In this document: one piece after another, positions 4,558-26,082 of the stretch
Position numbering within the stretch: the stretch's first letter is position 1
Layout: each line of letters opens with the position of its first letter
Source: Acholeplasma laidlawii PG-8A
GTDB lineage: Bacteria; Bacillota_I; Bacilli_A; Acholeplasmatales; Acholeplasmataceae
NCBI RefSeq assembly: GCF_000018785.1
Contig: NC_010163.1
Location: forward strand, 750,001 to 782,000
Direction of reading: 5' to 3'
DNA length: 32,000 bases
Notes under the pieces: generated by a model
Seen by the model: only the letters and a program-made list of their open reading frames with translations
What the model was told of the DNA's origin: nothing
Database searches by the model: none
Made by a program: the position numbers and the translations under genes

Positions 4558-4558
4558 G

Positions 4559-5686
4559 TTATTCACCTGTCATTCCGGTACGTTCAATACCTGCAATAAA
4601 TTGCTTTTGTGCAACTATATAAATAATAAATAAAGGTAAGATAGACAAGAATGTTGCTGCAGATTTATAACCTTCGTTAATTAAACCGATACCAACATCA
4701 CCTGGTGCACTATTTGCTTGATCTGCAAATATTGAATCAAATAGACTTAATCTCATGACTACAAGCGGATTACCAGATTGATAATAAATAGTTGCTGTAT
4801 AGATATCATTCCAATTCCAAATAAATGAAAATAGAAATACGATTAAAATAATTGGGACAACTAACTTAACATAAATATGCCAAAATACTTGGAATGAAGA
4901 TGCTCCATCAATTCGTGCTGCTTCATCTAATGTAATTGGAATCATTTTAAAGAAATTATAGAAAATTAATATAAGAATAGCTGAGTTGATACCTTGGCCA
5001 AAAAATGAAAATAGTACTTGAGGAATTAGTGTGGAAAATAACGCTCTACTGAAAAATGAACCTAAGAAATTATTAGCAAATAAAGCATCATAAATAGGAA
5101 TCCAAATATTTTCTTGTATACCGCTTATAATCATAATTCTAGGTACTGTGACCATTGGTAGTGGAATAATGAAGGACACTAATAACATCACAAAGAAGAA
5201 TTTCTTAAACTTAAAATTATATCGTGCAAAAGCAAAGCCTGTAAATGCAGCAATAACTGTTTGAATTAGTGCAAGTGTAGTCATGTTAAATAAGCTTTTA
5301 ATCAAGTTACCTGGATTTGTAAATGTACCTAAAAAACGATCGATAAAACTTAAACCTGGTGCAAACCAAGAAGGTGGTAGTAACTGTAGTACATGATTAG
5401 AAACAACAAAGTTACTAAAAGTTAATCCAGTTGGAATCCATGAAACCTCAGGACTTAATAAGTCCTTTCTCGTCATAAATGAGAGTAAAATCATACGAAT
5501 AATTGGAAATAAAAATACATAACTAATACCAATTAATAATACATAGATGACAAGTTTACCGATAACACCACCACTAGCTTTATGCCCAAATAAGTATTTT
5601 CGTATTTTACTTATAGAAATGTGTGAGGTGACTTTTTTAAATAGTAATTTAATTTTACCAAATAGGTCATTCATATATTTAATCAT
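4559..5686 (-). CDS. Carbohydrate ABC transporter permease (pair 1, second subunit), unusually long
   Basis: Polytopic membrane protein with the EAA loop LDEAARIDGASSFQVFWHIY. Its start overlaps the upstream stop (ATGA at 5683-5686). At 375 aa it is longer than typical MalG-like permeases of about 280 aa. Confidence 0.85.
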   Translation of the reverse strand: MIKYMNDLFGKIKLLFKKVTSHISISKIRKYLFGHKASGGVIGKLVIYVLLIGISYVFLFPIIRMILLSFMTRKDLLSPEVSWIPTGLTFSNFVVSNHVLQLLPPSWFAPGLSFIDRFLGTFTNPGNLIKSLFNMTTLALIQTVIAAFTGFAFARYNFKFKKFFFVMLLVSFIIPLPMVTVPRIMIISGIQENIWIPIYDALFANNFLGSFFSRALFSTLIPQVLFSFFGQGINSAILILIFYNFFKMIPITLDEAARIDGASSFQVFWHIYVKLVVPIILIVFLFSFIWNWNDIYTATIYYQSGNPLVVMRLSLFDSIFADQANSAPGDVGIGLINEGYKSAATFLSILPLFIIYIVAQKQFIAGIERTGMTGE

Positions 5687-6690
5687 GACATGTCACCTTT
5701 ATCTTTCTTCTTCTTAAATACACGATCAAACCATTCTTTAAGTGTTTCTTCATCTCTTAATTTCTTCAATTGAACACGATTGATACGTGCGATATGTTTG
5801 AGTTGTTTTTCCTTTAATGTATCTAGATATTTTGTGTCATCTTTAGTTCTTAGAACTAAGAATATAACACCAACAAATGCAAGTACTATCGCAGAATAAA
5901 CAATAACAACTGCAGCAGCAAATCCTAAACCATTCGTATAGTTGGAGTTGATAGTACCGACGACAAATGAGTAAATCGGATTCACTTCAAAGATTGCTAT
6001 TTGTACCACAGTATAAATACCTACAACAAGTCCAGTAGATCTTAAATTTGGTAGCATAATCTTCCATAGCATTTGCCATGAATTAGCACCATCGATTTGT
6101 GCTGCTTCATATAAACTATTATCAATTTTTTGTAAACCATTTAAAAATAATATAATTGGTATCCCTGTAAACCAAAGTATTAATGTAAAATTATCAAAAA
6201 TCGACATTAAAATGTTACTAAAGAAAGGCGAAATATTGTCGATCATCCTAAATATGAGTAATTCTGATATATCCATGAGTTGCATGGTATTAGAACTTCT
6301 TAATTGTGTCATAACAGGTCCACTAATAACAACTACAGGGAAGAAAAATATTAATCTGAAACCCGTTCTAAATTTAATTTTACTATTAAGTAGTATTGCT
6401 AGGATTAAAGATATAACTAAAATCATAGGCACATAAGTAATTTCCATAGAAATAAAGCCTACAACTAACTGGTTAAACTCAGTATTTCTAAAAAATGCTG
6501 TTACATAATTTTCAGTTCCAATAAATGAATATGTCCAACCATAGACGTCTTTAGATACTAAATTAAAACTTAACCAGATTGTATTGATGAATGGATAGAT
6601 AATGAAAAATATCAATCCTATCAACCAAGGAAGTAAAAATAAGTATGCTACATTTTCATTTTTCGGTTTTCTAACCCTTAATTTTGACAT
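5683..6690 (-). CDS. Carbohydrate ABC transporter permease (pair 1, first subunit) with a charged C-terminal tail
   Basis: Has the EAA loop LYEAAQIDGANSWQMLWKIMLP and multiple TM segments, with an AGGAGG SD upstream of the ATG at 6690. About 54 aa of Lys/Glu-rich tail follow the last TM. Confidence 0.85.
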   Translation of the reverse strand: MSKLRVRKPKNENVAYLFLLPWLIGLIFFIIYPFINTIWLSFNLVSKDVYGWTYSFIGTENYVTAFFRNTEFNQLVVGFISMEITYVPMILVISLILAILLNSKIKFRTGFRLIFFFPVVVISGPVMTQLRSSNTMQLMDISELLIFRMIDNISPFFSNILMSIFDNFTLILWFTGIPIILFLNGLQKIDNSLYEAAQIDGANSWQMLWKIMLPNLRSTGLVVGIYTVVQIAIFEVNPIYSFVVGTINSNYTNGLGFAAAVVIVYSAIVLAFVGVIFLVLRTKDDTKYLDTLKEKQLKHIARINRVQLKKLRDEETLKEWFDRVFKKKKDKGDMS

Positions 6691-6702: not shown

Positions 6703-9225
6703 TTAAATAACAAGCTTATAGTTAAGCTTTTCAACGGTTATACCTTTATAGATTACAGTATCTTCTGTGTAGTTAATTACAACTTCATAGCCGTTTGCAT
6801 AGGTATTTACAATAACACCTGGTTGTAGTACGCTTCTACCTACCCACACCTCATTCATCACACTTGCGAGTGCACTGTTGACATCATTATAGATATCTTT
6901 TATCATCTCTTCATATAATGTAAATTCAGTAGAATAATAGTTAGATGAATGTGTTGCAATTAATTTATAGGCAGGATCGTGTGTTAATACAAATGATGGG
7001 AATGTATTGTAGTCTATCATTCTTAATACATCTTTTTGTTGGTAGAATGAGAAGTTTGAATAGGTCGCATAATTCTCCATAGCACCATTCAATACCAATT
7101 GTAAGAATGGTACAGTATCAGTTTCAACAAGGTGTTGAGAACTAAATAGGGGTGTACTTAAATGTCTATCAACGTATGGCCATAAATACATATTAGGCAT
7201 GATGGCATTAATCTTTGTTGATGCATCAATCTTAGTAAAAGTATCTTCATAAAGTTTTATTGTATCTGTAACAGTAGTAATATTTTCATTACTTCTATAA
7301 TGGCTATACAAGAGGTTTGAAATGCCATCATAAGTATAACTTTCAAAGCCCATTTTAGAGGTCTTATTATAAGTATTTAAGACCCATGATGATGCTCTAT
7401 TAGGTGTAGCATAATACTGCTTTTCTACCGGGCCAGTTGTTCTTCTATAGTTATATTCACTATACCAACCTCCGATATGTTTCATCGCATTATCTATTAA
7501 GAACATATTTTCAGAGTAAATTGTTGTATAGTCTTGATGTAAGGATACATCGATACCAAGTTCATTTAGATACTTAACTGTTTGAGTAAATTTAGATTTA
7601 CTACCTATTGAATCACTCCAATTAGGGCTTGATTTTCGACCGAGAGTTACACCACCTTTTTGGTAACCGAGTAACCCTGAATTAATATTATAGACACCTT
7701 CATTTTGTAATGTTTCTAAAATCTTTTTTACTTCATCAATTGTTGTAACAACAACATCTTCTGTTCCGATTAATGCATTTTTTGCATCACTCATTAAGAA
7801 GTCAATTCTCATTGGAATATTTATAAACTGTTCATTTTTATAACTTAATACGCCTGATTCATGTAAATAATCACGATATTTAATTGCCATACCGACATAA
7901 TCTGCGCGATAAGGGTTATCTAGAGTTGTACCATCTCCTGCAAGCATATAAAAATGTTGATGGATGTCAAAGTGATTTCTTTCCTCAAATAAGGACTGAT
8001 AGCTTGCTCCAGACTGATTATAAACTTGAGTATAGACTCGATTATATAGATATCTTGAATGTGCAATCATATAATCAGTTAAGTTATAGGCATCACTTGA
8101 GTTAGATGGTCTAGCATATATTTGCATATACTCATCACCACTACTAGTGTGTGATAAAAATGCTGCTTGAGTTCCATCGCCATAAGAGATACCAAATACT
8201 GGCATAGATGGATCTTTATGAGGTATAAAATTGGGTTCTGTGCGGCTATGTGATGGTAATTGTGCAATATCTTGTCCATATACATGACCAGTATAACCAT
8301 TTAATGAGGATTGGTAATCTGTAAAACGGATTAATGCGCCACTTCCATCTGGAACGAATATGTAGCCTTCATTTCTAGGTTTATTGACTACCGTGTCCCA
8401 CTTTACTTCTTTTTCTGTTATTGTGCCTTCTTCGGATTCAAAGGTTTCAGTATGTACACTTGGTAAAGAAATCTTACCACCGTAAGAACCCATAAAAGGT
8501 GCGATGGAGATTGATCCAATTAAATCTGTGTCATCTCCCTCAATTTCGCTATCTCTAATTTCAATAGAAAATCCATCTAAAGTTAAATGTAGATGTACCT
8601 TAACCTCTACATCAATGGCTTTAAATTTAAAATCAAGTCTAAAATGGTTAGGATCGTTGTTTACATTCTTTAAAACGTCCGTATTCACAGAATTAGATAC
8701 ACGTTCTTGAACTGTTTCTATTTCAGGATTGTTTAAATCTGGTGCAATAATGAAGTTCTTTGTACTACTTCCTGTTTGTGTTAAAGGACGATTTGGACTT
8801 AAGCGATTGAGATATTCAATCATGATTAAAGAGTTTGCAATACCTTCTCTAGAGTTGTTCATTTGTTCCTCTAAAGGTTTTGCAATAGCTAATATGTCTT
8901 CATCTGATGCACCTGGATTATTTTTAATAAATAATTCTACAGTACTTTCAATGTAACCATCATAGTCATGATCAATACCACTTTTCCAAGTAAAACCGTT
9001 TCTTTTATCATAGACAGCAAATATACCATTATGTTTTTTATAATAGTATTCAAAGTTGGCATTTTCTTGAATGAGTGTAAAGCCATCCTTATTTAGTGGT
9101 ACGATTACGACTTCATCAGGTGGCATTTTAGTATCTTTACTAGATTCAATATATACCGCATTCACCGTGAAACCAAGTAATATAACGATACAGATTACTA
9201 GAATAGTTCTTTTAATTGAAAACAT
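6703..9225 (-). CDS. 840-aa membrane-anchored extracytoplasmic protein of unknown function (I suspect a DUF5696-type family; unverified)
   Basis: Has a single N-terminal TM (ILVICIVILLGFTVNAVYI) and then about 810 aa that are predicted to lie outside. I see no catalytic signature I can name. A GGAG SD lies upstream, and the start overlaps the upstream stop by 14 nt. The family assignment comes from memory of similar gene neighbourhoods, not from a search. Confidence 0.6.
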   Translation of the reverse strand: MFSIKRTILVICIVILLGFTVNAVYIESSKDTKMPPDEVVIVPLNKDGFTLIQENANFEYYYKKHNGIFAVYDKRNGFTWKSGIDHDYDGYIESTVELFIKNNPGASDEDILAIAKPLEEQMNNSREGIANSLIMIEYLNRLSPNRPLTQTGSSTKNFIIAPDLNNPEIETVQERVSNSVNTDVLKNVNNDPNHFRLDFKFKAIDVEVKVHLHLTLDGFSIEIRDSEIEGDDTDLIGSISIAPFMGSYGGKISLPSVHTETFESEEGTITEKEVKWDTVVNKPRNEGYIFVPDGSGALIRFTDYQSSLNGYTGHVYGQDIAQLPSHSRTEPNFIPHKDPSMPVFGISYGDGTQAAFLSHTSSGDEYMQIYARPSNSSDAYNLTDYMIAHSRYLYNRVYTQVYNQSGASYQSLFEERNHFDIHQHFYMLAGDGTTLDNPYRADYVGMAIKYRDYLHESGVLSYKNEQFINIPMRIDFLMSDAKNALIGTEDVVVTTIDEVKKILETLQNEGVYNINSGLLGYQKGGVTLGRKSSPNWSDSIGSKSKFTQTVKYLNELGIDVSLHQDYTTIYSENMFLIDNAMKHIGGWYSEYNYRRTTGPVEKQYYATPNRASSWVLNTYNKTSKMGFESYTYDGISNLLYSHYRSNENITTVTDTIKLYEDTFTKIDASTKINAIMPNMYLWPYVDRHLSTPLFSSQHLVETDTVPFLQLVLNGAMENYATYSNFSFYQQKDVLRMIDYNTFPSFVLTHDPAYKLIATHSSNYYSTEFTLYEEMIKDIYNDVNSALASVMNEVWVGRSVLQPGVIVNTYANGYEVVINYTEDTVIYKGITVEKLNYKLVI

Positions 9226-11254
9226 TTCTAATCAACTCCTTAATAATTGCATCTAAGAATAGATAGAGTTGTTGCCACATGGTGATGATGATGATTAAGA
9301 CAACAACAATGATAATTGCAAACAGTAAACTCATAAATATACTTCGTATGGTTTCCTTACCAGAATATTCATGTATTTCACTAATGCCTAGATAAATTAA
9401 TATGAACGACCAAATGGTGCCAAAAGTCATTATAAAATCTAAGAAAAAGACTTCATTATATGTAAGTACGTGTGATAGTAGTGTAACGAGTAATAAAGCT
9501 AAGAATAAAGGTCCTAGAGCATATACAAACATCATAAAGATCTGTTTAAGTTTACCGATACCATCATTAATTGATGTATCTAAATAATTACAGATTACAA
9601 ACAATAAGGTTACTGCTGTAAACCCTAAAACAAGTGCAGTGATATCAATATCTTCTACTAATATGTATTGATAGATGAACCCTTTAGATGTATTAAAGAA
9701 AATAAAGGTGATAAAGATAGCTACATATAAAATGAGTGTGGCTCTAAAAGAACCTTGATGTCCATGTTTTAAGTCTTCAAAACTATCGATTGGTTTTCTC
9801 ATGACTTTAAACATGAAACTTAATTCTCTTAAGATAGGTTTATCAAATGATTTTTTAATCGGTTGTGTGAATTGAGTTACTTTACCTGTTTTTTTATCTA
9901 CTTTATGTAATACTAAATTACTAAAGTAAATAAAGATAAGTGCAATAATAAATATACCTAAATAACTTTGTATCACAAGATTTCTAACTTCCCAGGATGC
10001 TTCTGAATAACCTGTACGATTACCTGCAAGTTCAAAATGATGCATTGCAGATTCATAATCCTGTAACTGTAGATAAGATTTTGCAATGTTATTATGAGCA
10101 ATCACAGACATTTGATTTAAATTAAGTACTTCGCTCCATGCATCAATAGCTTCTTGGTATAATCTGTCTTCATATAGATTAATAGCTCTATATATTTCTT
10201 TTGCATATGCGGTTGGTTCAAAGGATTGTAGAAATGATTTTGCATCATCTAAGGCAAATATAACACCATCATCTCGTACTGCAATCGAAGAAAGTCTTTG
10301 GAAGACACCAGAGATATCTTGATTTGAGGAGATATCAGAGTTACTTGCACCAAAATAGAAAATAAAATCACCGGTTTGATCATATACAAATATAGCACCT
10401 GATTGCATACCGGCATATACGATACCTTCTTTGTCAACATAAATATCTCTTGCATCATCAAAAGATATCATACGTTTGAAAATATTACCGCCTTGTGTGT
10501 TATGTTTTTTAACAGCATTGAAATAAGTACTCATCGTTGTAGTATAAACCATCGAGTTATCGTCGATAAATATGCTTGAGAATGTTTGTGGACTTCTCGC
10601 AAGTAAATTATCAAACTGTTCTGGTGTTAGTATGAGTTTTTGAAATTGTTGAACGACTGAAAGTCTGATTTTATTTGTTGTGAAAAATCCTAAGAATTCA
10701 CCAATGTTAGATAATTGGATAATACCGTTTGAAACACCTTCACCATAGATATATAAATTTCCGCGATTATCCACTGCGATTTTACTTGGTTCAAAACTCG
10801 TTTCACCAAATGATAAGGAATCCGGACGTTCAAATTTTTCAATAAAAGTACCATCAAGATCAAATCTAAAAACTGCTTTAGCTGCACTATCTGCAACATA
10901 TAATCCACGACTGGAAATATATAAACCTTTAGGTGCTAAAAATTCAGGATAGGTCAGTTCGAATAATAACTCATTTGTTACTGAGTCATATTTTAAAATA
11001 CGCATATTTCCAGTATCGGCTATCCATAAAAACCCATCATCATCAAACATCATATCTTCTGGTTTGTTTAAATTTAATTCCATTGTAGTTCTTAGTGGTA
11101 AATACGCATCTTGAGTTCTTACAAACTCGCCCTTCGCATTTAAAGTCAACGTATAACTTGTAGCTGCTGATGCAAATACTGGTGTGGCGTATATGACTAT
11201 GAATGCAACTATGAATAGTAAAATTGTAATTATTCTTTTAGTATTTTTCATCAT
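9212..11254 (-). CDS. Signal peptide - NHL-type beta-propeller - TPR - TM - Yip1-like 5-TM domain fusion protein
   Basis: Signal peptide ending VFASAAT. Repeated blade motifs are present (DGFLWIADTGNMRILKYD, RGLYVADSAAKAVFRFD, RGNLYIYGEGVSNGIIQL, EGIVYAGMQSGAIFVYD, DGVIFALDDAKSFLQSF). A TPR-like segment (YQEAIDAWSEVLNLN...AKSYLQLQDYESAMHHFELAG) follows. Then come one TM, a basic linker and five further TM helices in a Yip1-like arrangement. Confidence 0.7.
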   Translation of the reverse strand: MMKNTKRIITILLFIVAFIVIYATPVFASAATSYTLTLNAKGEFVRTQDAYLPLRTTMELNLNKPEDMMFDDDGFLWIADTGNMRILKYDSVTNELLFELTYPEFLAPKGLYISSRGLYVADSAAKAVFRFDLDGTFIEKFERPDSLSFGETSFEPSKIAVDNRGNLYIYGEGVSNGIIQLSNIGEFLGFFTTNKIRLSVVQQFQKLILTPEQFDNLLARSPQTFSSIFIDDNSMVYTTTMSTYFNAVKKHNTQGGNIFKRMISFDDARDIYVDKEGIVYAGMQSGAIFVYDQTGDFIFYFGASNSDISSNQDISGVFQRLSSIAVRDDGVIFALDDAKSFLQSFEPTAYAKEIYRAINLYEDRLYQEAIDAWSEVLNLNQMSVIAHNNIAKSYLQLQDYESAMHHFELAGNRTGYSEASWEVRNLVIQSYLGIFIIALIFIYFSNLVLHKVDKKTGKVTQFTQPIKKSFDKPILRELSFMFKVMRKPIDSFEDLKHGHQGSFRATLILYVAIFITFIFFNTSKGFIYQYILVEDIDITALVLGFTAVTLLFVICNYLDTSINDGIGKLKQIFMMFVYALGPLFLALLLVTLLSHVLTYNEVFFLDFIMTFGTIWSFILIYLGISEIHEYSGKETIRSIFMSLLFAIIIVVVLIIIITMWQQLYLFLDAIIKELIRNVFN

Positions 11255-11259
11255 ATCAC

Positions 11260-12135
11260 CTACTTAATCCCTGCATGAGCCATAGTGTTCATAACCCTAG
11301 ACTGCATAATGATAAAAATAATTAAATTCGGTAAGAACATTATTAATCCGGCAGCTGCAGCCATACCAACACCTGCTAGTGCAGAACCTGTGTTTGCCAG
11401 TGCTAACGTATTTAAATAAAATGCAAAGGACTTCATAGATTCATCCTGAATGTATAAATTAGATGCTTCAACTGCTCCCCATGTAGCTTGAAAGGTTAAA
11501 ATAGCTACTGTCGCAATCGCATTTTTAGTGAGTGGATAGATTATTTTAAATAGGATCTGAAAGTCATTTGCCCCATCGATTCTTGCAGCTTCAATTAATG
11601 CATCTGGAACTTGATCAATAAACTGTTTCATTAAAAATACATTCACTGGTACTGCTAAATAAGGCAGTATATGAACAAGTGGATTATTATTCAAACCAAC
11701 TTGAACAATAATAAAATAAGTTGGAATCACAACTGCTGTTCTAACAAACATTAGGGCAGTTTGATTTAAACCAAATAACGCCTTTTTAGCTCTGAAGTGT
11801 TTCTTTGATAGCACATAGCCTGTCATGACACTTAAAAATATTGTTAAAAATACAAGAATGATTGTTACTACCAGTGTATTAAATAAGTATCGGATTAAAG
11901 GAACCCCGGTAGATGTAGCTGTTCTAAAGAGTTCAGTAAAATTTCCGAAAGTAGGATTTTGAACAAAGAATCTTGGAGGAAATAAGAATAATTCATCTAA
12001 AGGTTTAAATGCTTGATTAATTATAAATAGTACAGGAAGTAACATAAATATAGCCATCGGAAGCAAGATTAGATAAAAAGGGATTTGTGATTTAGAAAAA
12101 CTCGTTGGATTTATTTTAGTTCCTTGAAAACTCAT
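11260..12135 (-). CDS. Carbohydrate ABC transporter permease (pair 2, MalG-like)
   Basis: EAA loop LIEAARIDGANDFQILFKIIYP, six predicted TM segments, and an AGGAGGGGTGA SD upstream. Confidence 0.9.
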   Translation of the reverse strand: MSFQGTKINPTSFSKSQIPFYLILLPMAIFMLLPVLFIINQAFKPLDELFLFPPRFFVQNPTFGNFTELFRTATSTGVPLIRYLFNTLVVTIILVFLTIFLSVMTGYVLSKKHFRAKKALFGLNQTALMFVRTAVVIPTYFIIVQVGLNNNPLVHILPYLAVPVNVFLMKQFIDQVPDALIEAARIDGANDFQILFKIIYPLTKNAIATVAILTFQATWGAVEASNLYIQDESMKSFAFYLNTLALANTGSALAGVGMAAAAGLIMFLPNLIIFIIMQSRVMNTMAHAGIK

Positions 12136-12150
12136 ATCATCACCCCTCCT

Positions 12151-13080
12151 TTAATCTTTTTCCGCAAATAAGCGGTATGCTATTTTAGAAAATACCCATA
12201 TTAGTAAAAGTAAAACTACTGATAATGCCGCAGCATAGCCCATTTCATAGCGAATAAATCCAAAATCATCAATATGGTTTGTGATTAGCTGTGCTGCATT
12301 TTGAGGTGTTGGATTAGATCCAGATAATGCAACGCCAATATATCCGTTTGTGAAAGTTGCCACGATCGCCATAACAGCTCCGAATAACATTTGAGGTTTC
12401 ATCATTGGTATTGTTACATAGACAACTTCTTGAAATTTATTACGAATCCCTTCAATATAAGCTGCCTCATAAAGTTCTTCATTCCCATTTAATATACCAG
12501 CCAACATTGCTAAAAACCCTACACCCATACTACTCCATAGAGCAACTACGATAATAATTGGCATTAAATATTGTGGTGATTGTAGAAACTGTATCGGTCG
12601 GTCCAATATATTCATATCCATCAAAATAGCATTAATATAACCGGATTCATCACCTGAAAAAAGTGTACGCCAAACAACTGAAATAAATACTCCACCTACC
12701 ATGGAAGGTGAATAAACTGCCAGTGCAATGATCGTTCTTGGTACTACTTGTATTTGTGCGAGCATCCATGCAAGTAGGAAAGATAGCATGTAGCCACCTG
12801 GTCCAACAATTAGTGAAAACATTAATGTATTTGGTAAAATATATTTTAAAAATACTGGGTCTTGTGTAAATATATTAATGAAATTTGTTAATCCCAAGTA
12901 TTGAGGCATTTCAATTACATTAAAGGATGTTAAAGATAGGTAAATTGCAATTGCTACAGGAAATGCTATAAATAAACTAAATAACAAGACATAGGGTAGT
13001 AACATGAAAAATACTGTGAGGCTATCTTTAAACTTTGCATTTTTGAAAAATACATTTTTACGCTTAATCGTTTGATCCAT
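12151..13080 (-). CDS. Carbohydrate ABC transporter permease (pair 2, MalF/LplB-like)
   Basis: EAA-like loop [23 protein letters not shown]. The track start is 13098, but the ATG at 13080 (MDQTIKRK...) is preceded by an AGGAGG SD at 6 nt spacing, so I prefer it. It overlaps the upstream stop (13064) by 17 nt. Confidence 0.85.
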
Positions 13081-16054
13081 GATAGCCTCCTGATGCATCT
13101 AACATTTGATTTCTAACCCATGTAATATCTCTAATTACATATGGTTTTATTAGGTTTCCTTCATTATCAAGAAAACCAAATTCAATCATTTTCTTTCGCA
13201 TTTCTCTGTTTATTAAAATGGTATATCTGTCTACAGCAATACCTGTAGGTGTTCCATCAAACACTGCTGTATTCCATATATCTGAAATCGATCTTTCTAA
13301 CATATATTGACCAGGTGTTCTCGGTACATCTATTAACCATTTAATTTGTTCTAAAATTACTTCTTTATCTTTTTCGGAAAAAGGTGATGCCATAAATGCA
13401 TTAATATTACCAGAAATCCATGCATAAGTAGGTCCATAAGTAGACTGTAAATTAAATGAAAATTGTGATTGAGTTTCAGTTGACATCCACCACTTTAAAA
13501 AATCCCATGCATCATCAGGTTGATCAGTTTCATTCATAATCATACCTGCTGTACCATTAGCAATATAGTGACGGTTCGTACCAGCTGCTTCAGTAGTTAT
13601 ACTAGGATAAGGTGCTATTTCCCACATCCCAGTTAATTCAGGTGCAGCATTTTTAATAAGTTGATAAGTTCCAAAGTCCGCGATTCCAATTGGTAGTGTT
13701 GCATATCTAAATGAATTATAAAATGAAACTACTTGCTCAGGTAAAGCATAGTTTGTAAATAATTGATTTAAGAAAGTTAAACCTTGAACGGCTTCTTTTT
13801 CATTAATACTTGTTCTTAAGCCATCTTCAGAGTAAATATTACCACCAAATTGATATATAAACCCAGAGGTTTGATAAAACCACTTAATTGCAGTTCCACC
13901 TGCAATTGGATGGTAGAAATTCATACCATACTTTTGTAATTCAGGTAGAATTTGAATCACTTCTTCCCATGTATCTGGTACCATAAAATTTAAAGCATCA
14001 AATATATCTTTTCTATACATGACAACATTAAAGTCCAAAGTTTCAGGTAATGCATAAGCTTTATCATTTAAAATATAAGGAACAAATGCGCCTGGTGCAA
14101 ATTGTGATGCGAATTCCCAATAATCATCAAAACTGGTTAAGTCATACGCTGAATTTCTAATTGCTAAGTCAAAAGGCATATAACTTGCTAGTCCTAGTGC
14201 AACATCCGGCTGTTGATTTGCAGCAGATGCCATAACAAGTTTATTTGCATCAGGCATTACTGAAATCTTAACTTGAATACCAGTTTGAGGTGTAAATGTT
14301 TGATCTGCCATCTTTTGCATCATATCTACATAAGTTATGGGTCTGTTTACCCAAACATCTAAAACACCATCTTCTTTAGTTAAGGCATATTTATTCGAAC
14401 TAAAACTTGCGATAAATGATTGTGTTCCAGCATAAAGTGATTCAAAAATATTCGGATTTGCCTTTCTCAATCGCGTGTTATTATATAAATGCAATTGATT
14501 CAAATACATTTGTTGATTATTTAGTGTATCTAAAATATCACCTAAAAATTGATTAATAGAGCCAGTTCCCCCAACAAGATCCTCTAAATATAATGGCAAT
14601 CTATTGTAATCTTTATAGATGTTTTCTGCTCTTGATAATGATTTTTGAAGGTTACTAATTGTTGCTGATTTTGCACCATTTGGTGCAAACAAACTGAGTT
14701 CATCAATACTAGCCTTTAGAAGTAAGATATAACTTTCCAAATATGCCTTAGATTCAGGCATTTGTTCACTAAATCTCCAAGTTCTATTCTTATCAACTTC
14801 TTTACCTGTAATTTTTCTGATTTCCAAAGTAAATGTATTGATATGATCTATAAGCATTTGTATGTTTCTAACAGCTTCTTGAACGGGTTCGCTTTCCGCT
14901 CTTAAAGTAATTGTATTTTTACCTGATTGGAAATAAAAATAGTAATCTGTTTGTTCATTGCCCAATGTTTCTACGCGCCAATTGCCTGCTTTTGTAGATT
15001 TAAACTGGTATGCTCTTACTTCATTAAACGGAATCTGTCCATTAATTTTAATAGATCTAAAAACAGGAAAATCAGCTTTAGGATTAGAATATCTAAATGC
15101 CAGTTTATAAAGGCCTGATTTTTCTACGTTGACTTCATAGGTTAAAGATTGACCTGGACGTTGCCAAGTTCTTCCGTCAATTACATTTAACTTTTTATAA
15201 ACTGGGTCAAAAGGTAAAACACTAGGATTTACCTCACTGTATGCTTGTACATAACTTGAGTTTTTATAACTATAATTGGTTGCATCTATATCAATAATTC
15301 CATCAATAATCTCATAGTTGTTTTGGTTAATATATGTATCGTAGTCGATTTGTAAAACAGGTTTAAATACATCAATATCTCCTATTATAAATTTAGAGGA
15401 GGATGTATTTTCAATGGTTAGTTGATTTAAACCTTGTTTAAAATAAAATAAGAGTGGATCAATAGAAATATAGGTATTATTATATGCAGCTACATACTGC
15501 CAATCATCCATAATTATTTGATTTGGCAACACTTCATCACCATAGCGATCTGTCAGATAATTTTTTGACTCATCTTGCCAAATGATAGGTAGTTCGATAG
15601 TCTGCATTTCTTGATAATAACTTTCATCATTAATTTTTAGTGCAATAGTAATTTGATTCAGTGTAGCATTCGATACTTTATAGTTCATACCTACATGATA
15701 ATAACCAGCTTCTTGTATTTCTATTTCGTAAGTAGCTATTTTATCTTTTGTCATTATCAAACTATATTGCATATTCTCTGAATCTATTAATGCATCAGAG
15801 TTTGTTAAACTTGCTGTAATTGTACTTAAGCCATAATCAACATTTTGTTGATGATCGCTTAAATAATCGACATACGTATATCTTGCATTATTAATGGATG
15901 CATTTAATAGTGTTTTTGTTTCTGAAACTAAATCATTTGTTATAGTTCCATCTGGCTTATAAATTGAAGTACCTCTTGTAAAGTAAATGATAGCAAAAAC
16001 TAATAAAACAGTCGCTAAACCCCAAACAATAGATCGTTTAATTTTACCCATCAT
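13064..16054 (-). CDS. Membrane-anchored tandem CBM-like / helical linker / solute-binding-protein fusion (996 aa)
   Basis: N-terminal TM ([17 protein letters not shown]). Two internally repeated beta-sandwich-like modules follow: aa ~95-230 ([21 protein letters not shown]...[14 protein letters not shown]) and aa ~250-390 ([21 protein letters not shown]...[17 protein letters not shown]). A helical stretch of about 170 aa comes next. From about aa 560 there is a family-1-type sugar SBP domain ([21 protein letters not shown]...). A GGGAGG SD lies upstream. Confidence 0.75.
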
Positions 16055-16083
16055 GATAAAAAACCTCCCTTTTTCATTATGAA

Positions 16084-16133: not shown

Positions 16134-17765
16134 TTATTTAAAATCAGCGTCTGTCTTGCCGTAATGTGTTTTAAGTCCGGCTTTCAACTTAGCCCATTCA
16201 TCAGCAAATCTTTGGTTTACCTGTGTATTCCATTCAGGCAACTTAGCTAATACAGCATTTGTAAATCCAGCATCTGTACGACGTGGAGAAGTAGCTTCAG
16301 GGTTACCAGTTAAGACGGTTGGTAAGTTAAAGTTATTCCATTCATATAGAATTTCAGATCTTACACCATCTTTATCGTAATACCAAGGGTAAGCTTTATC
16401 AGAGACGTCAATAACTTTACCTGATGAGAATACTTCCATCATATAGTGGAAACCAGGGAATTGTTCTTTATCTGCAAGCATTGTATGATTTTCTGCAGAG
16501 AACCAAATATCCATTTGACGTTCAAATGCAGCACCAGTTACTAGAGGTACAGAGTCATTCATAGCAGTTTTAACTGTAGCACCATTTGTATACATTTGGT
16601 CAGCTCTTGCTTGCCATGCACGGTCATCACCAATCCAGAATGATGCAAATGTATAAGCAATTTGTAATTTATTAAATTCTTCATCAGATAATTCTGAATT
16701 ATTATCATCTAAAGCATAATTATGAATTGCAAGTGGGTCAAGTACTACACCTACTGTATTATCAACGTAATCTGTACTAGGTCTTGGATAAATATCCCAA
16801 TTGTTTGATTGAACAGCACCCCAATGTAATGGATCAGGGTTTGCAGCATCACCTAACATCCAAGGATCTCCATCAAGTGTTAATAATGCACCATTTTTAA
16901 AGAAGTTGAAACTCCACCAACCATTAGCATCCATAAATGGAGCCATTGGGTCGCCTACTTTATCAAATTGTGGCCATACTGAGTGTTCTGACCATTCAGC
17001 GATATAAGGAATTAATGATCTAACTTGTGCAGAATTAAGATCAATATATGGATCATTTCCAGTATGATTAACAAGTGATTGTGCCATTGTAGTTGATCCT
17101 GTGAATATAAAACTCTTTGGAGTATCCATAGAACCATACCAAGAATTAGCTACAGAATGGCTAACAAAGTCTGTATATTCATCAATTGTCCAATCTGGAT
17201 CAGGAATATCAATATTGTTATCATCTGCTAATTGCTTATTGATATATACGCCCCAAGGTTGTAAGAATTGTGGTAAACCAGCTTGAACTCCATAGTAATT
17301 CATCATGCTCATAATACCTTTATTAAATGATTTATACATAGGGTCATCACTAAATACAGATAAGTCTGATACCATACCACGTTGAACTTCACCAGGTAAA
17401 TCTGTTGATGCCCATATATCAATTGTTTTACCATGTTCTAAAATGAAGTTTTCTCTAAACTGAGACCAACTCACACCATCATCATGTGGACCATTGACTT
17501 TAGTGATAACATTGATCTTAACATTTGGATAATCTTTGTTAAACTCTTTAGCTACTGCATAAATAGTTGCAGCATTTTGAGAGACTAACTGATCAGGTGT
17601 TAGATTTTTCTTACCGATATCTTGGTAGAATTCTCCGTCTCCTGACCACAACATAATTGTAATTTCACCACTAGCCGCTTTATCTAATCCTTTATAACTA
17701 GGACCACAAGCTACTAATAGTAATACTACCATTGCAAGTAAACTTGAAACAAAAATCTTTTTCAT
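16134..17765 (-). CDS. Extracellular sugar-binding lipoprotein (ABC transporter SBP, long ~540-aa class)
   Basis: Signal peptide with the lipobox LLLVAC. The composition is aromatic- and Trp-rich, as in SBPs. It is the first gene after a promoter, with an AGGAGGA SD at 17771-17777. Confidence 0.85.
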   Translation of the reverse strand: MKKIFVSSLLAMVVLLLVACGPSYKGLDKAASGEITIMLWSGDGEFYQDIGKKNLTPDQLVSQNAATIYAVAKEFNKDYPNVKINVITKVNGPHDDGVSWSQFRENFILEHGKTIDIWASTDLPGEVQRGMVSDLSVFSDDPMYKSFNKGIMSMMNYYGVQAGLPQFLQPWGVYINKQLADDNNIDIPDPDWTIDEYTDFVSHSVANSWYGSMDTPKSFIFTGSTTMAQSLVNHTGNDPYIDLNSAQVRSLIPYIAEWSEHSVWPQFDKVGDPMAPFMDANGWWSFNFFKNGALLTLDGDPWMLGDAANPDPLHWGAVQSNNWDIYPRPSTDYVDNTVGVVLDPLAIHNYALDDNNSELSDEEFNKLQIAYTFASFWIGDDRAWQARADQMYTNGATVKTAMNDSVPLVTGAAFERQMDIWFSAENHTMLADKEQFPGFHYMMEVFSSGKVIDVSDKAYPWYYDKDGVRSEILYEWNNFNLPTVLTGNPEATSPRRTDAGFTNAVLAKLPEWNTQVNQRFADEWAKLKAGLKTHYGKTDADFK

Positions 17766-17938: not shown

Positions 17939-19420
17939 TTAATTTTCGTTACTAATATTTTCGTTTAAAACAAATGTTGTAGTTGCTTTTGCTGGTAGTT
18001 TATAATTCATTTGGCTACCATTTATATCTAAACTAAACATCATTGAATTAGAAGATTTATTATGTACCACGACTGTAATACTACCATCAGGGTTTAAAAA
18101 TGCTGTGTTTAGTAAATTTGCATTACTTGTTTTACTATCTATTCTATATGCTCCAACCTCTACAAATTTAGAAAAATGTCCGATCATATAGTATTCTTCA
18201 TTTTTAATAACCTCTGAAGTTTCACTATGAATAGTTAAAATGCCACGGCAATTTTGGCACCCACCATTGATAGGTCCATTGTTTTCATTTAAGGCAATGT
18301 TCCACATCAATACACCTTTAGCGCCGCGATTTAGAGAACCCATAAAAATATTTTCCATATTCCACGATATATTGTCTCCAAAATTCGTAGCCCATAAACC
18401 ACCGGATATTTCTGTGAACCAAATACCTTTATCAGGAAATATGTTACCTAATCTTGAAGTTTCTGATACATTTCCACCATAACCATGTAATGCAACCCCT
18501 GCAATATATTGATTTGCTTTACTATTTAGTACAGTTATTGGGTAGTCCATTCGATCCCAATTATGGTCATATGCCATGATTAATGTATCGATATTGGCTT
18601 CATTAAATTGGATGCCCATAGACTCAATTAAATTTATTTGTTGATCTGGCAACATTTTCATTGTAGGATAAGTGTTTGATTCATGAAGTGGTTCATTTTG
18701 CGGTGTAACTGCATATATATCGATGCCTTGAAGCTTCATAGCTTCAATATATTTAACAAAATATTGTGCATAGACATCGATGTACTTATCCAGTAAACTA
18801 CCACCATTAAGGTGTTTATTATCTTTCATCCAAGCTGGTGCACTCCATGGAGATGCCATAATAAATAGGTCGTTATTTCTTATGAGTGCTTCTTTTAAAA
18901 CTGGTATAAGATGTTGCATCTCTCTATCGATAGAAAAGTTATTTAATGCTAAGTCTTCTATGTTACTTGGCGTATCATTATACGTATAATTGTCTAAGGA
19001 AAAGTCAGATGCACCTATAGTAAGTCGCATAAATGACATATTTAACCCTTCTTTGTTAAATAGTTCATCTAATACATTATGTTTATCATTTTCATCCAAA
19101 TTATTAATGACTAAAGCACTAGATTCTGTCATCGCTGCTCCAAAACCATCAATTACTTGGTATTTTATACTAGGATCAATATTGATTTTTGTGTACTCTG
19201 AATCTAAATCTATAGTGGTATTTGAAGCCTCTTCTTTTTTAAGTAATTTGCTTTTATCAGCCCATGTTGTAAAGCTATCCACTGAATAAGTTTTTTTCAC
19301 GATAGGGGGTTCTCCATTATTCGTATTATCACATGCAATAAGCATCATTAAACATATACACACTAAGCATAACAAGAAGATACGCTTATGTATCTGTGTG
19401 CTAGCTTGTAACTTTAACAT
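17939..19420 (-). CDS. GH30 family glycosidase (beta-1,6-glucanase / glucosylceramidase-like), lipoprotein
   Basis: GH30 landmarks are present: IDGFGAAMTESSA near the N-terminus, TPQNEP (acid/base Glu) and GIWFTEISGG (nucleophile Glu). The lipobox is MLIAC. The ATG at 19420 overlaps the upstream gene by 20 nt. Confidence 0.85.
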   Translation of the reverse strand: MLKLQASTQIHKRIFLLCLVCICLMMLIACDNTNNGEPPIVKKTYSVDSFTTWADKSKLLKKEEASNTTIDLDSEYTKINIDPSIKYQVIDGFGAAMTESSALVINNLDENDKHNVLDELFNKEGLNMSFMRLTIGASDFSLDNYTYNDTPSNIEDLALNNFSIDREMQHLIPVLKEALIRNNDLFIMASPWSAPAWMKDNKHLNGGSLLDKYIDVYAQYFVKYIEAMKLQGIDIYAVTPQNEPLHESNTYPTMKMLPDQQINLIESMGIQFNEANIDTLIMAYDHNWDRMDYPITVLNSKANQYIAGVALHGYGGNVSETSRLGNIFPDKGIWFTEISGGLWATNFGDNISWNMENIFMGSLNRGAKGVLMWNIALNENNGPINGGCQNCRGILTIHSETSEVIKNEEYYMIGHFSKFVEVGAYRIDSKTSNANLLNTAFLNPDGSITVVVHNKSSNSMMFSLDINGSQMNYKLPAKATTTFVLNENISNEN

Positions 19421-20111
19421 AATCGATTAAAAATTCTACTGGGAAAATTGAGTCATCTATTTTACCGCCCCAGTTACCACCTATCGCCAAATTAATTATC
19501 ATGAAAAACGGTTCATCAAACGGCCAATTATCTAACCCTTGCTTATCTTCTTTAGGTGCTTTAAATAATAGTTCATTATCTAAATAATAATTAAAACCTT
19601 CTTTGGACCATTCTAGTTTATAGACATGAAAATCATCACTCAAGTTTTTAATTTCTTTTTTTAGATGTAGATTGTTTGATTTTGTATGATTGAAGTTTTT
19701 AGAGTGTAATGAAAAATGTAATGCGTCCGGTTCTTTACCTACATATTCCATCAAATCAATTTCACCACAAGTTGGCCAACCAACTTTATGAATATTATCC
19801 CCCAACAACCAAAATGCTGGCCAAGTTCCTAATCCCTTTGGTAACTTCATACGCACTTCAATTGCTCCGTATTGAATACTCACTTTATTTTTTGTAGTTA
19901 TTTTCGCAGATGTATATTTTCGATGTTCAAAATCTTCTTTACGAGCCACAATATGTAGTAGGCTATCCTCTATATAAATGTTATCTAAGCGGTCTGTGTA
20001 AAACTGATCTTCATTGTTTCCAAAACCACTACCACCAACATCAATATTCCAGTATGTTTGATTAGGTTTTGTTCCTACATCAAAATGATCATAAAAAACT
20101 ATTTTTTTCAT
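19401..20111 (-). CDS. GH16 endo-beta-1,3-glucanase without a signal peptide (predicted cytoplasmic)
   Basis: Carries the catalytic motif GEIDLMEY. The N-terminus MKKIVFYDHFDVGTKPNQTYW has no hydrophobic leader. There is an ATGA overlap with the upstream cupin gene. Confidence 0.85.
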   Translation of the reverse strand: MKKIVFYDHFDVGTKPNQTYWNIDVGGSGFGNNEDQFYTDRLDNIYIEDSLLHIVARKEDFEHRKYTSAKITTKNKVSIQYGAIEVRMKLPKGLGTWPAFWLLGDNIHKVGWPTCGEIDLMEYVGKEPDALHFSLHSKNFNHTKSNNLHLKKEIKNLSDDFHVYKLEWSKEGFNYYLDNELLFKAPKEDKQGLDNWPFDEPFFMIINLAIGGNWGGKIDDSIFPVEFLIDYVKVTS

Positions 20112-20506
20112 AATATCTCCTTTATTTTTGTTCTAAGTTTGGAATCTATATAGTATTTCGTAGAATTCAGATCTCCTGTATTATCTTCTTCTATAATCAG
20201 TAGTTTTGCATCAATAGATAATACTTGTGTATGATATACATCTTTTTTAACATTATAAATTTTATTTTTTTCAAGATGAACTGCTTCAATACTTAATGAT
20301 TTTTCATCATTAACATCTAAAAATAATAAAGTTGCAGAACCATCTAATAGAACAAATACTTCATCCGTTTCATGATGTGCTTCAAAATATATCAAGCCAT
20401 CCAAACTACAGTCATCAATATAATTTAGTATGGCAACACGCCAATTTTGGTAAGTCATTAAACTTTTGTAGCCCTCTTGACTAAATTCAAATAGTTCATA
20501 ATTCAT
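20108..20506 (-). CDS. Small cupin-fold protein of unknown function
   Basis: 132 aa. YFEAHHETDEVFVLLDGSATLLF resembles cupin motif 1 and KDVYHTQV is a possible motif 2. It overlaps both neighbouring genes (11 nt and 4 nt), which suggests translational coupling. Confidence 0.55.
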   Translation of the reverse strand: MNYELFEFSQEGYKSLMTYQNWRVAILNYIDDCSLDGLIYFEAHHETDEVFVLLDGSATLLFLDVNDEKSLSIEAVHLEKNKIYNVKKDVYHTQVLSIDAKLLIIEEDNTGDLNSTKYYIDSKLRTKIKEIL

Positions 20507-22993: not shown

Positions 22994-25900
22994 TTAACCA
23001 TGTCTCATCATTTTGATTTCATAGATATGGATATTTGATTTATTAAATTTTATCGAAAGTACTTGTTTTCCAGGATCAGCTAGCAGACTCGCTCTTGCGT
23101 GGACCTTGTTACCTTCAGTGCCATGTATTGTAATTGTTGTTTTATATTGATTATTCAGGTACAGTGAAAATGGTAATTGCGCTAAACTTTGTACATCACT
23201 TGATAGAGTAAAATCGACCAAGTACTTCCCTGGCATTTCTAGAGCTACAGGAAAATTTAAGATAGCATCTTTTTCTAAAATAGAAAGGACATTATTATCA
23301 AGTGAAACGGATTTTATATGCTTTAGAGCAGCATCAAAAACAAAGTTTAATGGTTCCCATGGTTTCATACCACACTTTGGATATTCCATCTTACTAAACA
23401 GGTTTAAATCGACTATATTTAGGTTACTTGATTCAAAATTTTCAGTGTTAAAATAATAAATATTTGTATCATATTTATTTGATTTTACTGCGATTGCGTG
23501 TTGTTTATTTTTGTGAATATAGACTTTAAGTTTTTTATGCTTTATCGTGTCAATTTTGTCTATTTGATGGTTAAAAATCAACGGATTTATAACGAATTTT
23601 TGACCATTTACCAATAGTTCTTCTATAAGCGGCAATTTTATATCCTTTGCATCATATTTAAACCAATAATTTCTCCTATTTTTTGAGGGTTTAAATTCTA
23701 GTTGATGCATACGACTAAATGCTGGCGTTTTTAGTAAAAAGTTTAGAATATTTTTAGCTACCCTTTGCAAGTGAGACTTTTTAAGTTCGCCATTTAAGTA
23801 ACTTTCTTTTGAATTGTCATGATTTGAATTTGATTTGGCATCACTAATAACCATATATAAATCATTTTGGCTGATGATCATTGCCTTAGTATTCTTAACA
23901 TCACCAGGACCATTAAAATCATTCATTTTAGCCCACCAATCGGTGACTAAAATACCATCAAATCCCCACTCATCCCTTAAAAGGAGTGAGTTAACCTCAA
24001 AATGAGAGGCTGTCCATAAACTATTCACCGGATTATAAGATGTCATGATTGCACGGGCTTTACCCACTTTTATTGCAATTTCAAAGCCTCTTAAATAGAT
24101 TTCTCTTTGAGCACGTTCAGATACTACTGCATCTACATTAAATCGATCTGTTTCTTGATTATTTGCAAATAAATGCTTGAGTGTCCCTGTAACACCTTCT
24201 TTTTGTAAACCAATGACTGCACTTGATGCCATAAGTCCTGTAAGCAGTGGATCTTCTGAATAATATTCAAAATTACGGCCATTTAGAGGATGTCTTAAAA
24301 TATTCATACCTGGACCCAAGATTAAATCAATATGATAAGCTTTCATTTCCTTACCAAGTAGTTGGTAAAGTGTTTCAACCATATTCAAATCAAAACTTGA
24401 GGCTAAGGCTATGCCATTAGGTAAACTTGAAGCATAAAAACCAGAGTCCATACGAATACCACTAGGTCCATCTGCTGCACATGCAATCGGTATACCCTTA
24501 TCAAGTAATTCATCGGTCACACCGCCAAATGCTGATGCAGTTCCTGGTGTCACTTTAGGTGAACTCATACCTTCACCTCGTGTGAGTTCAATGAGTTGAT
24601 CAATTTCAAGTGATCCGATAAATTCATCCATAGTATGTTTATGCTCATAAACATCTAATAATGTAATATCAGATGTATTGCTTGGTATTTCTCTAGGTAT
24701 ATGATCTTTAATTGTTTCATTATAATTGGTAGTTCTTAAAGGTACATCTTCATAGATAATTTGATAGTTTTCATCTGGTTTGATACGTTTAAAAGGCTTA
24801 ACCGGTGCTGATATTTCTCTTGATAAATGTGTAATGATATCATCAATAATTTCAATTTCACCGTATTGTGTGTGGTGTCTTGATGAATTTCCAATATAGA
24901 ATTTATATAAACCTTTTTCTAGCACAAAAGAAGATTTAAATACATGCCCAATATCATCAAAGCTTGCTAGATTATATAAATCAATTTTAATTTCGATGAT
25001 TTGATTTTCTTTTGGTTCAAGTTCTCTGGTTTTAGCAAATGCTGCTAAAACCATTTTAGGTTTACCTAATAATCCTTGAGGTGCATTTAAATAGATTTGG
25101 ACAACTTCTTTTGCTCTATGTCTACCAGTATTCTTAACCTCTATTTTAAAGGTTATAATTTTATCATCCATATCAAAAGATATAGGTTTAATTTTAAATT
25201 CAGAGTAAGTGAGTCCAAAACCAAATGGATATCTCACAGCAGTGTGATTAAATGTCTCAAAATATCTATAACCAACATAAATATCTTCTTCATATATGAC
25301 TTGTGATTTATGTCCGAAATTATGGAATGCGGGCTCTGATGATAAGTCATTAACTAATGTCATAGGTAGTTTACCTGATGGTGACTTATAACCTACCATT
25401 ACATCTTTTAGAGCTAATGCTCCATACTGTCCACCATGCCATGCAAAGATAAGTCCATCAATTTGATAAGTATCCATAAAAGTTAGATCCATAGCATTAC
25501 CAACATTTAATACAACTATTGTTTTCTTAAAATGAGAAGTTACATCTTTAAGTAGACTTAACTCTTCATCTGTTAAATAATAACTTCCTTTTGTCGGTTT
25601 GTTATCTTTATCTTCCCCTGCTGTTCTACCAAATACTACTATCGCAATGTCACTTTCTTTAGAAGCATTTAATACTAAACTAGTGTCTAAAAGCATTTCT
25701 TGTTGATTCCATGGTTCAGATGCCCATTGCCCATTACCGGAATCGAATGGATTTTCTTCTACCCATTTTTTATAAACATCATAAACGTTCATATTTACAG
25801 ATACATTGGGATCATTAATAAACGATTCAATTAATGAAGGTACATGCTTAACATTTACCAAACCTCCAGAGCCAGTACCAGATTTATAGTAATTAAACTG

Positions 25901-26059: not shown

Positions 26060-26082
26060 GTCATATCTCCATATCAATAATT

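Follow-up and report, generated by a model that had tools for sequence, protein, structure and literature searches.

The 32,000-nucleotide stretch of the Acholeplasma laidlawii PG-8A genome analysed here (RefSeq assembly GCF_000018785.1, contig NC_010163.1, positions 750,001 to 782,000; hereafter the window) contains, on its minus strand, a 996-codon open reading frame (ORF) with an ATG start at 13064..16054. Its product is identical to ABX81340.1, an A. laidlawii protein annotated as 'extracellular solute-binding protein', and is referred to below as the big SBP (solute-binding protein). We found that it combines a membrane anchor, two beta-sandwich modules resembling carbohydrate-binding modules (CBMs), a conserved helical domain and a complete sugar-type SBP domain, and that its gene belongs to a colinear eight-gene cassette that recurs in related loci. 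The original prediction, made from the letters of the window, had described a membrane-anchored SBP fused to tandem CBM-like modules through a long helical spacer, and its ORF and the coordinates of each part were accurate within a few codons. The features of the gene, all on the minus strand, are listed below with the evidence for each in parentheses, AF2 denoting AlphaFold2.

16064..16069, minus strand: ribosome-binding site GGGAGG, 9 nt 5' of the ATG (read directly)
15974..16042, minus strand: transmembrane anchor, aa 5-27 (hydropathy and AF2)
15842..15937, minus strand: two juxtamembrane helices, aa 40-71 (AF2)
15359..15826, minus strand: CBM35/6-like beta-sandwich module 1, aa 77-232 (profile, AF2 and Foldseek)
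14891..15301, minus strand: conserved linker and CBM35-like beta-sandwich module 2, aa 252-388, core 297-388 (profile, AF2 and Foldseek)
14399..14890, minus strand: conserved helical domain, aa 389-552, with one strand at aa 517-525 (AF2 and alignment)
13085..14368, minus strand: MalE-type (SBP_bac_1/SBP_bac_8) solute-binding domain, aa 563-990 (Pfam and Foldseek)
13064..13098, minus strand: 35-nt overlap between the end of the big SBP gene and the start of the gene for permease P1 (ORF coordinates)

AF2 modelling of the full-length big SBP from an alignment of 75 sequences gave a mean predicted local distance difference test score (pLDDT) of 87.8 and a predicted template modelling score (pTM) of 0.80. 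The model consists, in order, of a transmembrane helix (aa 2-26), two short helices (aa 40-71), two sandwiches (aa 77-232 and 252-388), a run of helices (aa 389-552) containing a strand at aa 517-525, and a two-lobe SBP fold (aa 563-990). Because a pTM of 0.80 was reached for a 996-residue chain, the model implies that the domains are held in fixed mutual positions as one compact body and not as beads on a string. No PDB structure spanning the whole architecture was returned by a Foldseek search with the full model. Against NCBIfam, the N-terminal block had no match and the SBP domain scored only far below the cut-offs (MalE equivalog, 27.4 bits versus 291; NgcE, 17.7 bits versus 399.65). Misassembly or accidental fusion was ruled out as the origin of this architecture, since over 120 homologs with 45-90% identity share it at full length, as do remote relatives with 24-38% identity.

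Variants of the gene were also observed. A 719-aa version, identical to aa 1-719 of the big SBP, is listed in other A. laidlawii assemblies (P0121 and P0124), and the site of truncation matches that of a perfect 8-bp inverted repeat, AATTGCAG...CTGCAATT, at 13886-13907 of the window (minus strand; aa ~716-723), within the SBP domain. These versions could stem from recurrent inactivation of the gene or from an artefact of sequencing. In two loci from metagenome-assembled genomes (MAGs), L065 (9851-12901) and L056, two ORFs take the place of the single big SBP ORF, and the interruption in L065 is an in-frame stop (11249-11251); these two cases may be due to a pseudogene, to an error in the sequence or to an alternative genetic code.

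The sole hydrophobic stretch of the big SBP is aa 5-27 (Kyte-Doolittle value of 2.2), which corresponds to the AF2 helix at aa 2-26. There is no cysteine in the first 50 residues and therefore no lipobox, so the big SBP is not a lipoprotein SBP, and the single transmembrane anchor that had been proposed in place of a lipobox was borne out. All 75 homologs have a hydrophobic N-terminus, and in about five of them, of the Erysipelotrichaceae type (P0082, P0104, P0106, P0113 and P0120), a true lipobox is present instead. Since a lipobox replaces the cysteine-free helix in these homologs, the N-terminus is predicted to be an interchangeable membrane tether, with the remainder of the protein extracellular. 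The big SBP is not an SBP-permease fusion of the OpuA/GlnPQ type: it has a single transmembrane helix and no match to BPD_transp_1.

The C-terminal domain was assigned by both sequence and structure comparison. Pfam SBP_bac_1 matched aa 579-862 with an E-value of 6.5e-18 (66.2 bits versus a cut-off of 26) and SBP_bac_8 scored 52.5 bits (cut-off of 27), the SBP matches spanning aa 579-866. The first match of the full model in the PDB by Foldseek was Lin1841, the SBP for beta-1,2-gluco-oligosaccharides of Listeria innocua (5ysb; E 6e-18, TM-score 0.82, ~405 columns). MalE structures superposed on the SBP domain with TM-scores of 0.80-0.83, and a cycloisomalto-oligosaccharide-binding protein was matched as well. 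The sequence search agreed, with aa 562-990 closest to 5ysb (E 1e-17, ~21% identity). The SBP fold that had been expected at the C-terminus is thus present, and the domain is predicted from sequence and model to be a genuine MalE-type (CUT1) sugar SBP domain that would bind and deliver substrate.

Lin1841 (PDB 5ysb-5ysf) is accordingly the closest MalE-type SBP to this domain. Kuhaudomlarp et al. (PMC6484121) indicate a further likeness, a Gram-positive beta-glucan locus with a GH94-family phosphorylase and without an ATPase gene of its own. Unlike the big SBP, Lin1841 is a chain of 386-397 residues with the SBP fold only and without the 530-aa N-terminal block. Because the identity is low (~21%), its ligand specificity cannot be transferred to the big SBP.

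The N-terminal block contains both copies of the sequence pattern from which an internal repeat had been proposed. The repeat was weak in a single-sequence BLAST comparison (E 9e-5), and profile-profile alignment of module 1 with module 2 (hhalign, 75 homologs) aligned aa 100-218 with aa 297-388 at a probability of 98.3% and an E-value of 1.5e-14. The profile comparison makes the repeat of two homologous beta-sandwich modules unambiguous and not a product of chance. Module 1 carries a conserved loop, W159-x-D161...D169-x-YGDE-x-LP-x-Q179, and a conserved insertion of ~27 residues.

A separate AF2 model of the block (aa 30-560), built from 10 sequences, had a pLDDT of 70 overall and 80-90 in the sandwich cores; the lower confidence at aa 258-296 and 513-560 may reflect the absent SBP contacts or the shallow alignment. 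Foldseek matched this model to isolated CBM35 and CBM6 structures, all of them beta-jelly-rolls, with E-values of 1e-5 to 1e-4 and target-normalised TM-scores of 0.53-0.68. The CBM35 matches were 2w46, 2w1w, 2vzp and 2w3j (TM-scores of 0.6-0.68) and the CBM6 matches 8j3x, 2cdp and 1uxz; CBM16, CBM22 and the CBM35 region of cycloisomalto-oligosaccharide glucanotransferases were also found. The best Foldseek E-values belonged to Cry protoxins (9h9a, 8w7n and 4w8j), which were rejected as relatives in architecture; since their TM-scores were only 0.09-0.18, we read these matches as due to their CBM-like beta-roll domains. A profile of the block matched the CBM35 of Paenibacillus CITase weakly (5x7g, residues 434-513; E 8e-5).

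Pfam searches of the N-terminal 536 aa gave only sub-threshold matches, to CBM_35 and Golvesin_C. Among relatives of the protein, P0100 scored 30.8 bits for CBM_35, above the cut-off of 28, and P0094 scored 27.2 bits. Comparison with known CBM35 and CBM6 modules (CITase 5x7g, Cellvibrio Abf62 2w46 and CBM6 2cdp) revealed a shared beta-jelly-roll, tandem occurrence and the signatures 'TYxVxVxxxGxYxL..RYAN' and 'YLxxGxNTIxL'. Unlike them, the modules of the big SBP have diverged to below the Pfam threshold, module 1 has its ~27-residue insertion, and the usual setting of such modules is on enzymes, not on SBPs. The CBM-like identity proposed for the modules therefore stood in fold and profile, as CBM35/6 type, and did not stand as strict family membership, which fails on the curated Pfam score; glycan binding by the modules is putative.

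The region between module 2 and the SBP domain had been called a long helical spacer. A helical region of ~165 aa does exist, whereas a role as spacer is at odds with its conservation and with the compact model. Mean pairwise identity among the 75 homologs was 0.64 for the SBP domain, 0.52 for the helical region, 0.48 for module 2, 0.44 for the inter-module linker, 0.38 for module 1 and 0.19 for the transmembrane segment. The helical region contains the motifs IDHINxF and GKEVDxNRTW, and six of its residues (H404, F408, G417, D421, R424 and W426) are invariant. Because its conservation exceeds that of the modules between which and the SBP domain it had been given the role of spacer, the helical region is predicted to be a functional domain and not a spacer.

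How widespread the fusion is was surveyed by searching 1.84 billion cluster representatives (50% identity clusters) with the N-terminal block profile. There were 1,948 matching clusters at E <= 1e-3, of which 941 had E <= 1e-30. Among the best 150 of the 1,948 matches, nearly all were proteins of 940-1,040 aa in which residues ~30-570 were matched, and the simplest explanation for the shorter ones is that they are fragments from metagenomes. Since nearly all of these best 150 have the full length and the same match position, the block appears to be an obligate partner of this type of SBP, in a fusion that is ancient, widespread and unnamed. The fusion had been thought unusual; it is indeed undescribed in the searchable literature, and it is common in nature.

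Loci were collected with one genome per species, which returned 80 loci. The hosts include Acholeplasmataceae, Mariniplasma, Haloplasmataceae, Izemoplasmatales, Erysipelotrichaceae, Turicibacter, Clostridiaceae, Halanaerobiales, Vallitaleaceae, Defluviitaleaceae, Oscillospiraceae and termite-gut Treponema MAGs, and one cluster from Eubacterium sp. has 347 near-identical members. The Treponema MAGs (L071, L077, L081 and L085), which are diderm spirochaetes, encode a big SBP with 31-33% identity. Downstream cassette genes were seen in L071, L077 and L085, and L081 stops right after the big SBP. The distribution suggests that the Treponema big SBP was acquired horizontally from Bacillota.

The genes around the big SBP form a colinear core, in the order SBPL, big SBP, P1, P2, NHL-TPR-Yip1, DUF5696, P3 and P4. 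Apart from the big SBP, its members in the window are as follows.

16134..17765, minus strand: SBPL, a 543-aa SBP-like lipoprotein, core gene 1, with the lipobox LLVAC (Pfam and N-terminus)
12151..13098, minus strand: P1, a MalF-type permease with an EAA loop (Pfam and motif)
11260..12135, minus strand: P2, a MalG-type permease with an EAA loop (Pfam and motif)
9212..11254, minus strand: NHL-TPR-Yip1 membrane protein of 680 aa, with a signal sequence, an NHL beta-propeller, TPR and a C-terminal multi-transmembrane Yip1 domain
6703..9225, minus strand: DUF5696 protein, transmembrane-anchored, a distant homolog of GH129 glycosidases
5683..6690, minus strand: P3, a permease of the second pair, with an EAA loop
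4559..5686, minus strand: P4, a permease of the second pair, with an EAA loop

The proteins of the window were searched against the six-frame ORFs of all fetched loci. By a strict script, the six genes 3' of the big SBP were present in order in 48 of the 54 loci whose downstream flank reaches 8.5 kb or more. Of the six misses, five were threshold artefacts, P1 being present in these loci, and one lacked a detected P4; the colinear core recurs in essentially all 54 loci. SBPL lies directly 5' of the big SBP in 68 of 71 loci, and the remote members (24-38% identity) also keep the core. In related loci the NHL-TPR-Yip1 gene always lies between the two permease pairs. In one locus, L088, SBPL is absent and the NHL-TPR-Yip1 protein is divided between two genes, one for the NHL ectodomain (532 aa) and one for the Yip1 part (235 aa).

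An SBP lipoprotein had been noted upstream of the big SBP, and SBPL, with its lipobox, is this protein. No similarity was detectable between the two SBPs of the operon, which rules out an origin of the big SBP by duplication and extension of SBPL. EAA loops are present in all four permeases, so that MalF/MalG-type permeases lie beside the SBP gene and the window contains two transporter cores and two binding proteins. The idea of a second SBP for one importer was not borne out by this arrangement of two SBPs, two permease pairs and two further conserved extracytoplasmic or membrane proteins. No ATPase gene is present in the 32-kb window. With two permease pairs and two SBPs lacking one, the energising ATPase must be encoded elsewhere; an ATPase gene is likewise noted as absent from these loci by Kuhaudomlarp et al. 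(PMC6484121). Because the big SBP and P1 genes overlap by 35 nt, the sequence suggests that they are translationally coupled, and a tight junction between the two genes also occurs in L001, L002, L004 and L005. A scan for promoters and terminators returned sites at no more than chance expectation, with no terminator between SBPL and the big SBP.

The enzymes of the window are in accord with the beta-1,3/1,6-glucan locus that had been proposed. Pfam assigned two GH16 proteins (GH16a and GH16b), one GH30 and one GH3; the GH94 protein matched a Paenibacillus laminaribiose phosphorylase (E 5e-176), and a 1,037-aa protein matched a GH161 phosphorylase structure (E 2e-213). Judged by their N-termini, GH30, GH16b and SBPL are lipoproteins, the big SBP and DUF5696 are anchored outside by a transmembrane segment, NHL-TPR-Yip1 has a secreted ectodomain followed by ~five transmembrane helices, and GH16a, GH3, GH94 and GH161 are cytoplasmic. 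GH16a (19401-20111, minus strand) has 236 aa and no signal peptide and is predicted to be cytoplasmic, and GH16b (3664-4566, minus strand) is a lipoprotein of 300 aa with the lipobox LLIAC. Because an endo-glucanase and an oligosaccharide-acting phosphorylase are in the cytoplasm, fairly long chains are probably imported. In L089, a gene for PF10091 ('Glycoamylase', 21304-22962), which we take to be the domain of GH144 beta-1,2-glucanases, follows the cassette in place of GH16. This replacement hints that the cassette serves other beta-glucans too.

A profile of 14 DUF5696 sequences from the cassette matched the GH129 alpha-N-acetylgalactosaminidase NagBb (5wzq and 5wzn) with an E-value of 5e-8 over residues 215-360 of the enzyme. 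The DUF5696 homolog in L035 has a CBM_4_9 insertion that scores above threshold, and DUF5696 is not mentioned in the searchable literature. These profile comparisons suggest that DUF5696 is most likely a membrane-anchored extracellular glycosidase of an uncharacterised GH129-related family, which would give the cassette a surface enzyme of its own.

An exploratory co-evolution (mirror-tree) analysis was carried out on 42 loci, in which the values are confounded by shared phylogeny and gene adjacency. The partial correlation of the SBP domain with P2 was 0.35 and that of the N-terminal block with P1 was 0.23, with values of ~0 for P3 and P4. DUF5696 correlated with the Yip1 transmembrane domain (0.37), P3 (0.32) and the NHL-TPR ectodomain (0.31). 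SBPL correlated with the SBP domain of the big protein (0.37), not with its N-terminal block (-0.04), and tracked neither permease pair; the correlation between SBPL and the SBP domain could reflect a shared ligand or direct contact.

We consider it somewhat probable that the big SBP is the membrane-tethered receptor of a CUT1-type ATP-binding cassette (ABC) importer for beta-gluco-oligosaccharides, in which the N-terminal block presents the glucan and holds the SBP in register. Oligosaccharides would be made at the surface by the lipoproteins GH16b and GH30, and probably also by the transmembrane-anchored DUF5696. The N-terminal block would hold glucan polymer or long chains, partner surface proteins, or both, beside the binding cleft, and the SBP domain would capture laminari-oligosaccharides, probably fairly long ones. 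The SBP domain would then dock on P1/P2, its own gene probably being coupled in translation to that of P1, and the ATPase from elsewhere would power import. Capture, cleavage and import could thereby take place at one site on a cell without a wall in which enzymes could be retained. In the cytoplasm, GH16a, GH3, GH161 and the GH94 laminaribiose phosphorylase would complete the breakdown of the imported chains.

Several findings weigh against this proposal. The score of the window protein for Pfam CBM_35 was 16.9 bits (cut-off of 28; E 0.008), below threshold. The canonical CBM6/35 ligand Asn of the last strand ('PN(L/I)D') was not recognised by motif reading, which was done without structural superposition; at the expected site module 1 reads IGDIDVF, and module 2 goes directly into a helix after LRAE. 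Tandem malectin-like ectodomains, which are protein binders, were among the Foldseek matches. The WxD...DxYGDE loop and the helical motifs are kept in remote members that stand beside other enzymes (for example, the GH144-type gene in L089), and such retention is no less compatible with a conserved protein partner, or with a Ca2+ site, than with a site specific for a glycan. The co-evolution values for pairing with P1/P2 are subject to the confounding by phylogeny and adjacency, and pTM is the sole basis of the predicted rigid body.

Much of this evidence also supports a different reading, which we regard as unlikely overall and as the most serious of the alternatives: the N-terminal block would be a protein-docking scaffold whose CBM-like folds have lost sugar binding, so that the SBP domain alone meets sugar, and the block and helical domain would lock the SBP into a fixed complex with NHL-TPR-Yip1, DUF5696 and the permeases. 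The strict and colinear co-occurrence of the big SBP, NHL-Yip1 and DUF5696 genes across related loci is consistent with such a complex, as are the conservation of the helical region and of the module 1 loop in remote subfamilies whatever the neighbouring enzymes, the unrecognised canonical site residue and the sub-threshold CBM_35 score. The malectin-like matches come from ectodomains of plant CrRLK1L receptors (ANX1/2; 6fig, 6fih and 5y96), which resemble the block in having two CBM-like sandwiches rigidly packed in a membrane-anchored ectodomain and recognise peptides or proteins; the match is at the level of the fold only, with TM-scores of 0.13-0.18, and serves as a warning that CBM-like folds in tandem do not necessarily bind glycans. 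A precedent for a Yip1-domain accessory subunit of an ABC transporter is YknW in the YknWXYZ system of Bacillus (PMC4887032), which differs in being a peptide-toxin exporter without an SBP and in that YknW lacks the NHL/TPR ectodomain. Against the scaffold role, the modules are homologous by profile to real CBM35s, the locus handles a soluble polymer, for which polymer capture would pay, and the partial correlations of the N-terminal block with NHL (-0.10), Yip1 (0.15) and DUF5696 (0.18) are weak. A scaffold role and glycan binding are also compatible and not mutually exclusive.

A more far-reaching version of the receptor model can be put forward only tentatively and is rather improbable in our estimation. 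Here, the CBM-SBP fusion, the DUF5696 enzyme and an NHL/TPR/Yip1 scaffold would form a stable surface super-complex coupled to the two ABC importers, which captures, cuts and imports glucan without release and would be the monoderm equivalent of the Bacteroidota utilisome. The N-terminal block would in this case hand the polymer from the enzyme to the binding cleft.

It is very unlikely that the N-terminal block is a passive stalk that sets the distance of the SBP from the membrane and has no specific partner. The block does sit between anchor and SBP, and tethering of an SBP near its transporter is a known strategy in monoderms and archaea. Nevertheless, 530 structured residues with 38-52% pairwise identity, many of them invariant, are far beyond the needs of a tether, the big SBP of Erysipelotrichaceae keeps the block despite its changed type of anchor, and SBPL of the same operon does without it. 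Least plausible, to the point of being highly improbable, is a sensor that signals glucan availability in place of transport: SBP-like domains do act as sensors in some two-component and chemotaxis systems, and LacI-type regulators adjoin some related loci, but the big SBP has no signalling domain, its only transmembrane helix leaves just four residues in the cytoplasm, its gene and that of the first permease overlap, and the nearby regulators are cytoplasmic LacI types that need no surface sensor.

The capture of glycans at the cell surface is well understood in Bacteroidota, which use Sus-like systems, and much less so in Bacillota and their wall-less relatives, for which the usual picture is one of free or wall-bound enzymes and ordinary lipoprotein SBPs. 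The cassette around the big SBP resembles the SusCD 'utilisome' of Bacteroidota with its surface glycan-binding proteins, in that surface binders and enzymes are encoded together with a transporter for a polymer such as laminarin. There is no homology between the two: the Bacteroidota systems are TonB-dependent, whereas ABC transport is encoded here, the envelopes differ, and the cassette described here is known from genes. If the parts of the receptor model work together, the cassette would be a common and overlooked route for the turnover of laminarin and other beta-glucans, and testable functions would follow for DUF5696 and for bacterial Yip1 proteins. It occurs in roughly a thousand or more sequence clusters, with hosts that include gut Eubacterium, marine and sediment Izemoplasmatales, Erysipelotrichaceae and termite Treponema. 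The big SBP is an elaborated SBP, and it is of value as a pointer to an uptake system that is large, rigidly conserved, unstudied and testable; the protein itself is easily tested, given its clear domain boundaries and a model on which the design of soluble constructs can be based.

The A. laidlawii locus itself has been published, as it is among the GH94/GH161 clusters of Kuhaudomlarp et al. 2019 (PMC6484121). In the available part of that paper, SBP genes are marked, two permease genes without an SBP are noted beside GH161, sharing of an SBP between two clusters is proposed, and the region is treated as two adjacent clusters, in contrast to the single conserved cassette found here. The size of the SBP, its transmembrane anchor, the CBM-like modules, NHL-Yip1 and DUF5696 are not mentioned in that part of the text. 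No description of a CBM-SBP fusion or of the eight-gene cassette was found in the searchable literature, and searches for DUF5696, locus tags, Yip1 or CBM-SBP combinations gave nothing relevant. An entry 'ACL_0720, ABC transporter substrate-binding protein' is present in a vesicle proteome table (PMC4947986), with a tag that was not mapped to the big SBP gene. The architecture of the big SBP and the eight-gene cassette therefore appear to be undescribed, in contrast to the GH94/GH161 laminarin locus.

Two minor observations concern the enzyme genes of the window. The GH3 protein (1,027 aa; 22994-26077, minus strand) has a permuted order of Pfam domains, with the GH3 C-terminal domain first, followed by an Fn3-like domain and the GH3 N-terminal catalytic domain. 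Between the GH94 and GH16a genes there is an ORF of 132 aa (20108-20506, minus strand) with no Pfam match, the position of which is kept in loci of the Acholeplasma type (L006, L008, L012-L015, L017, L075 and L078).

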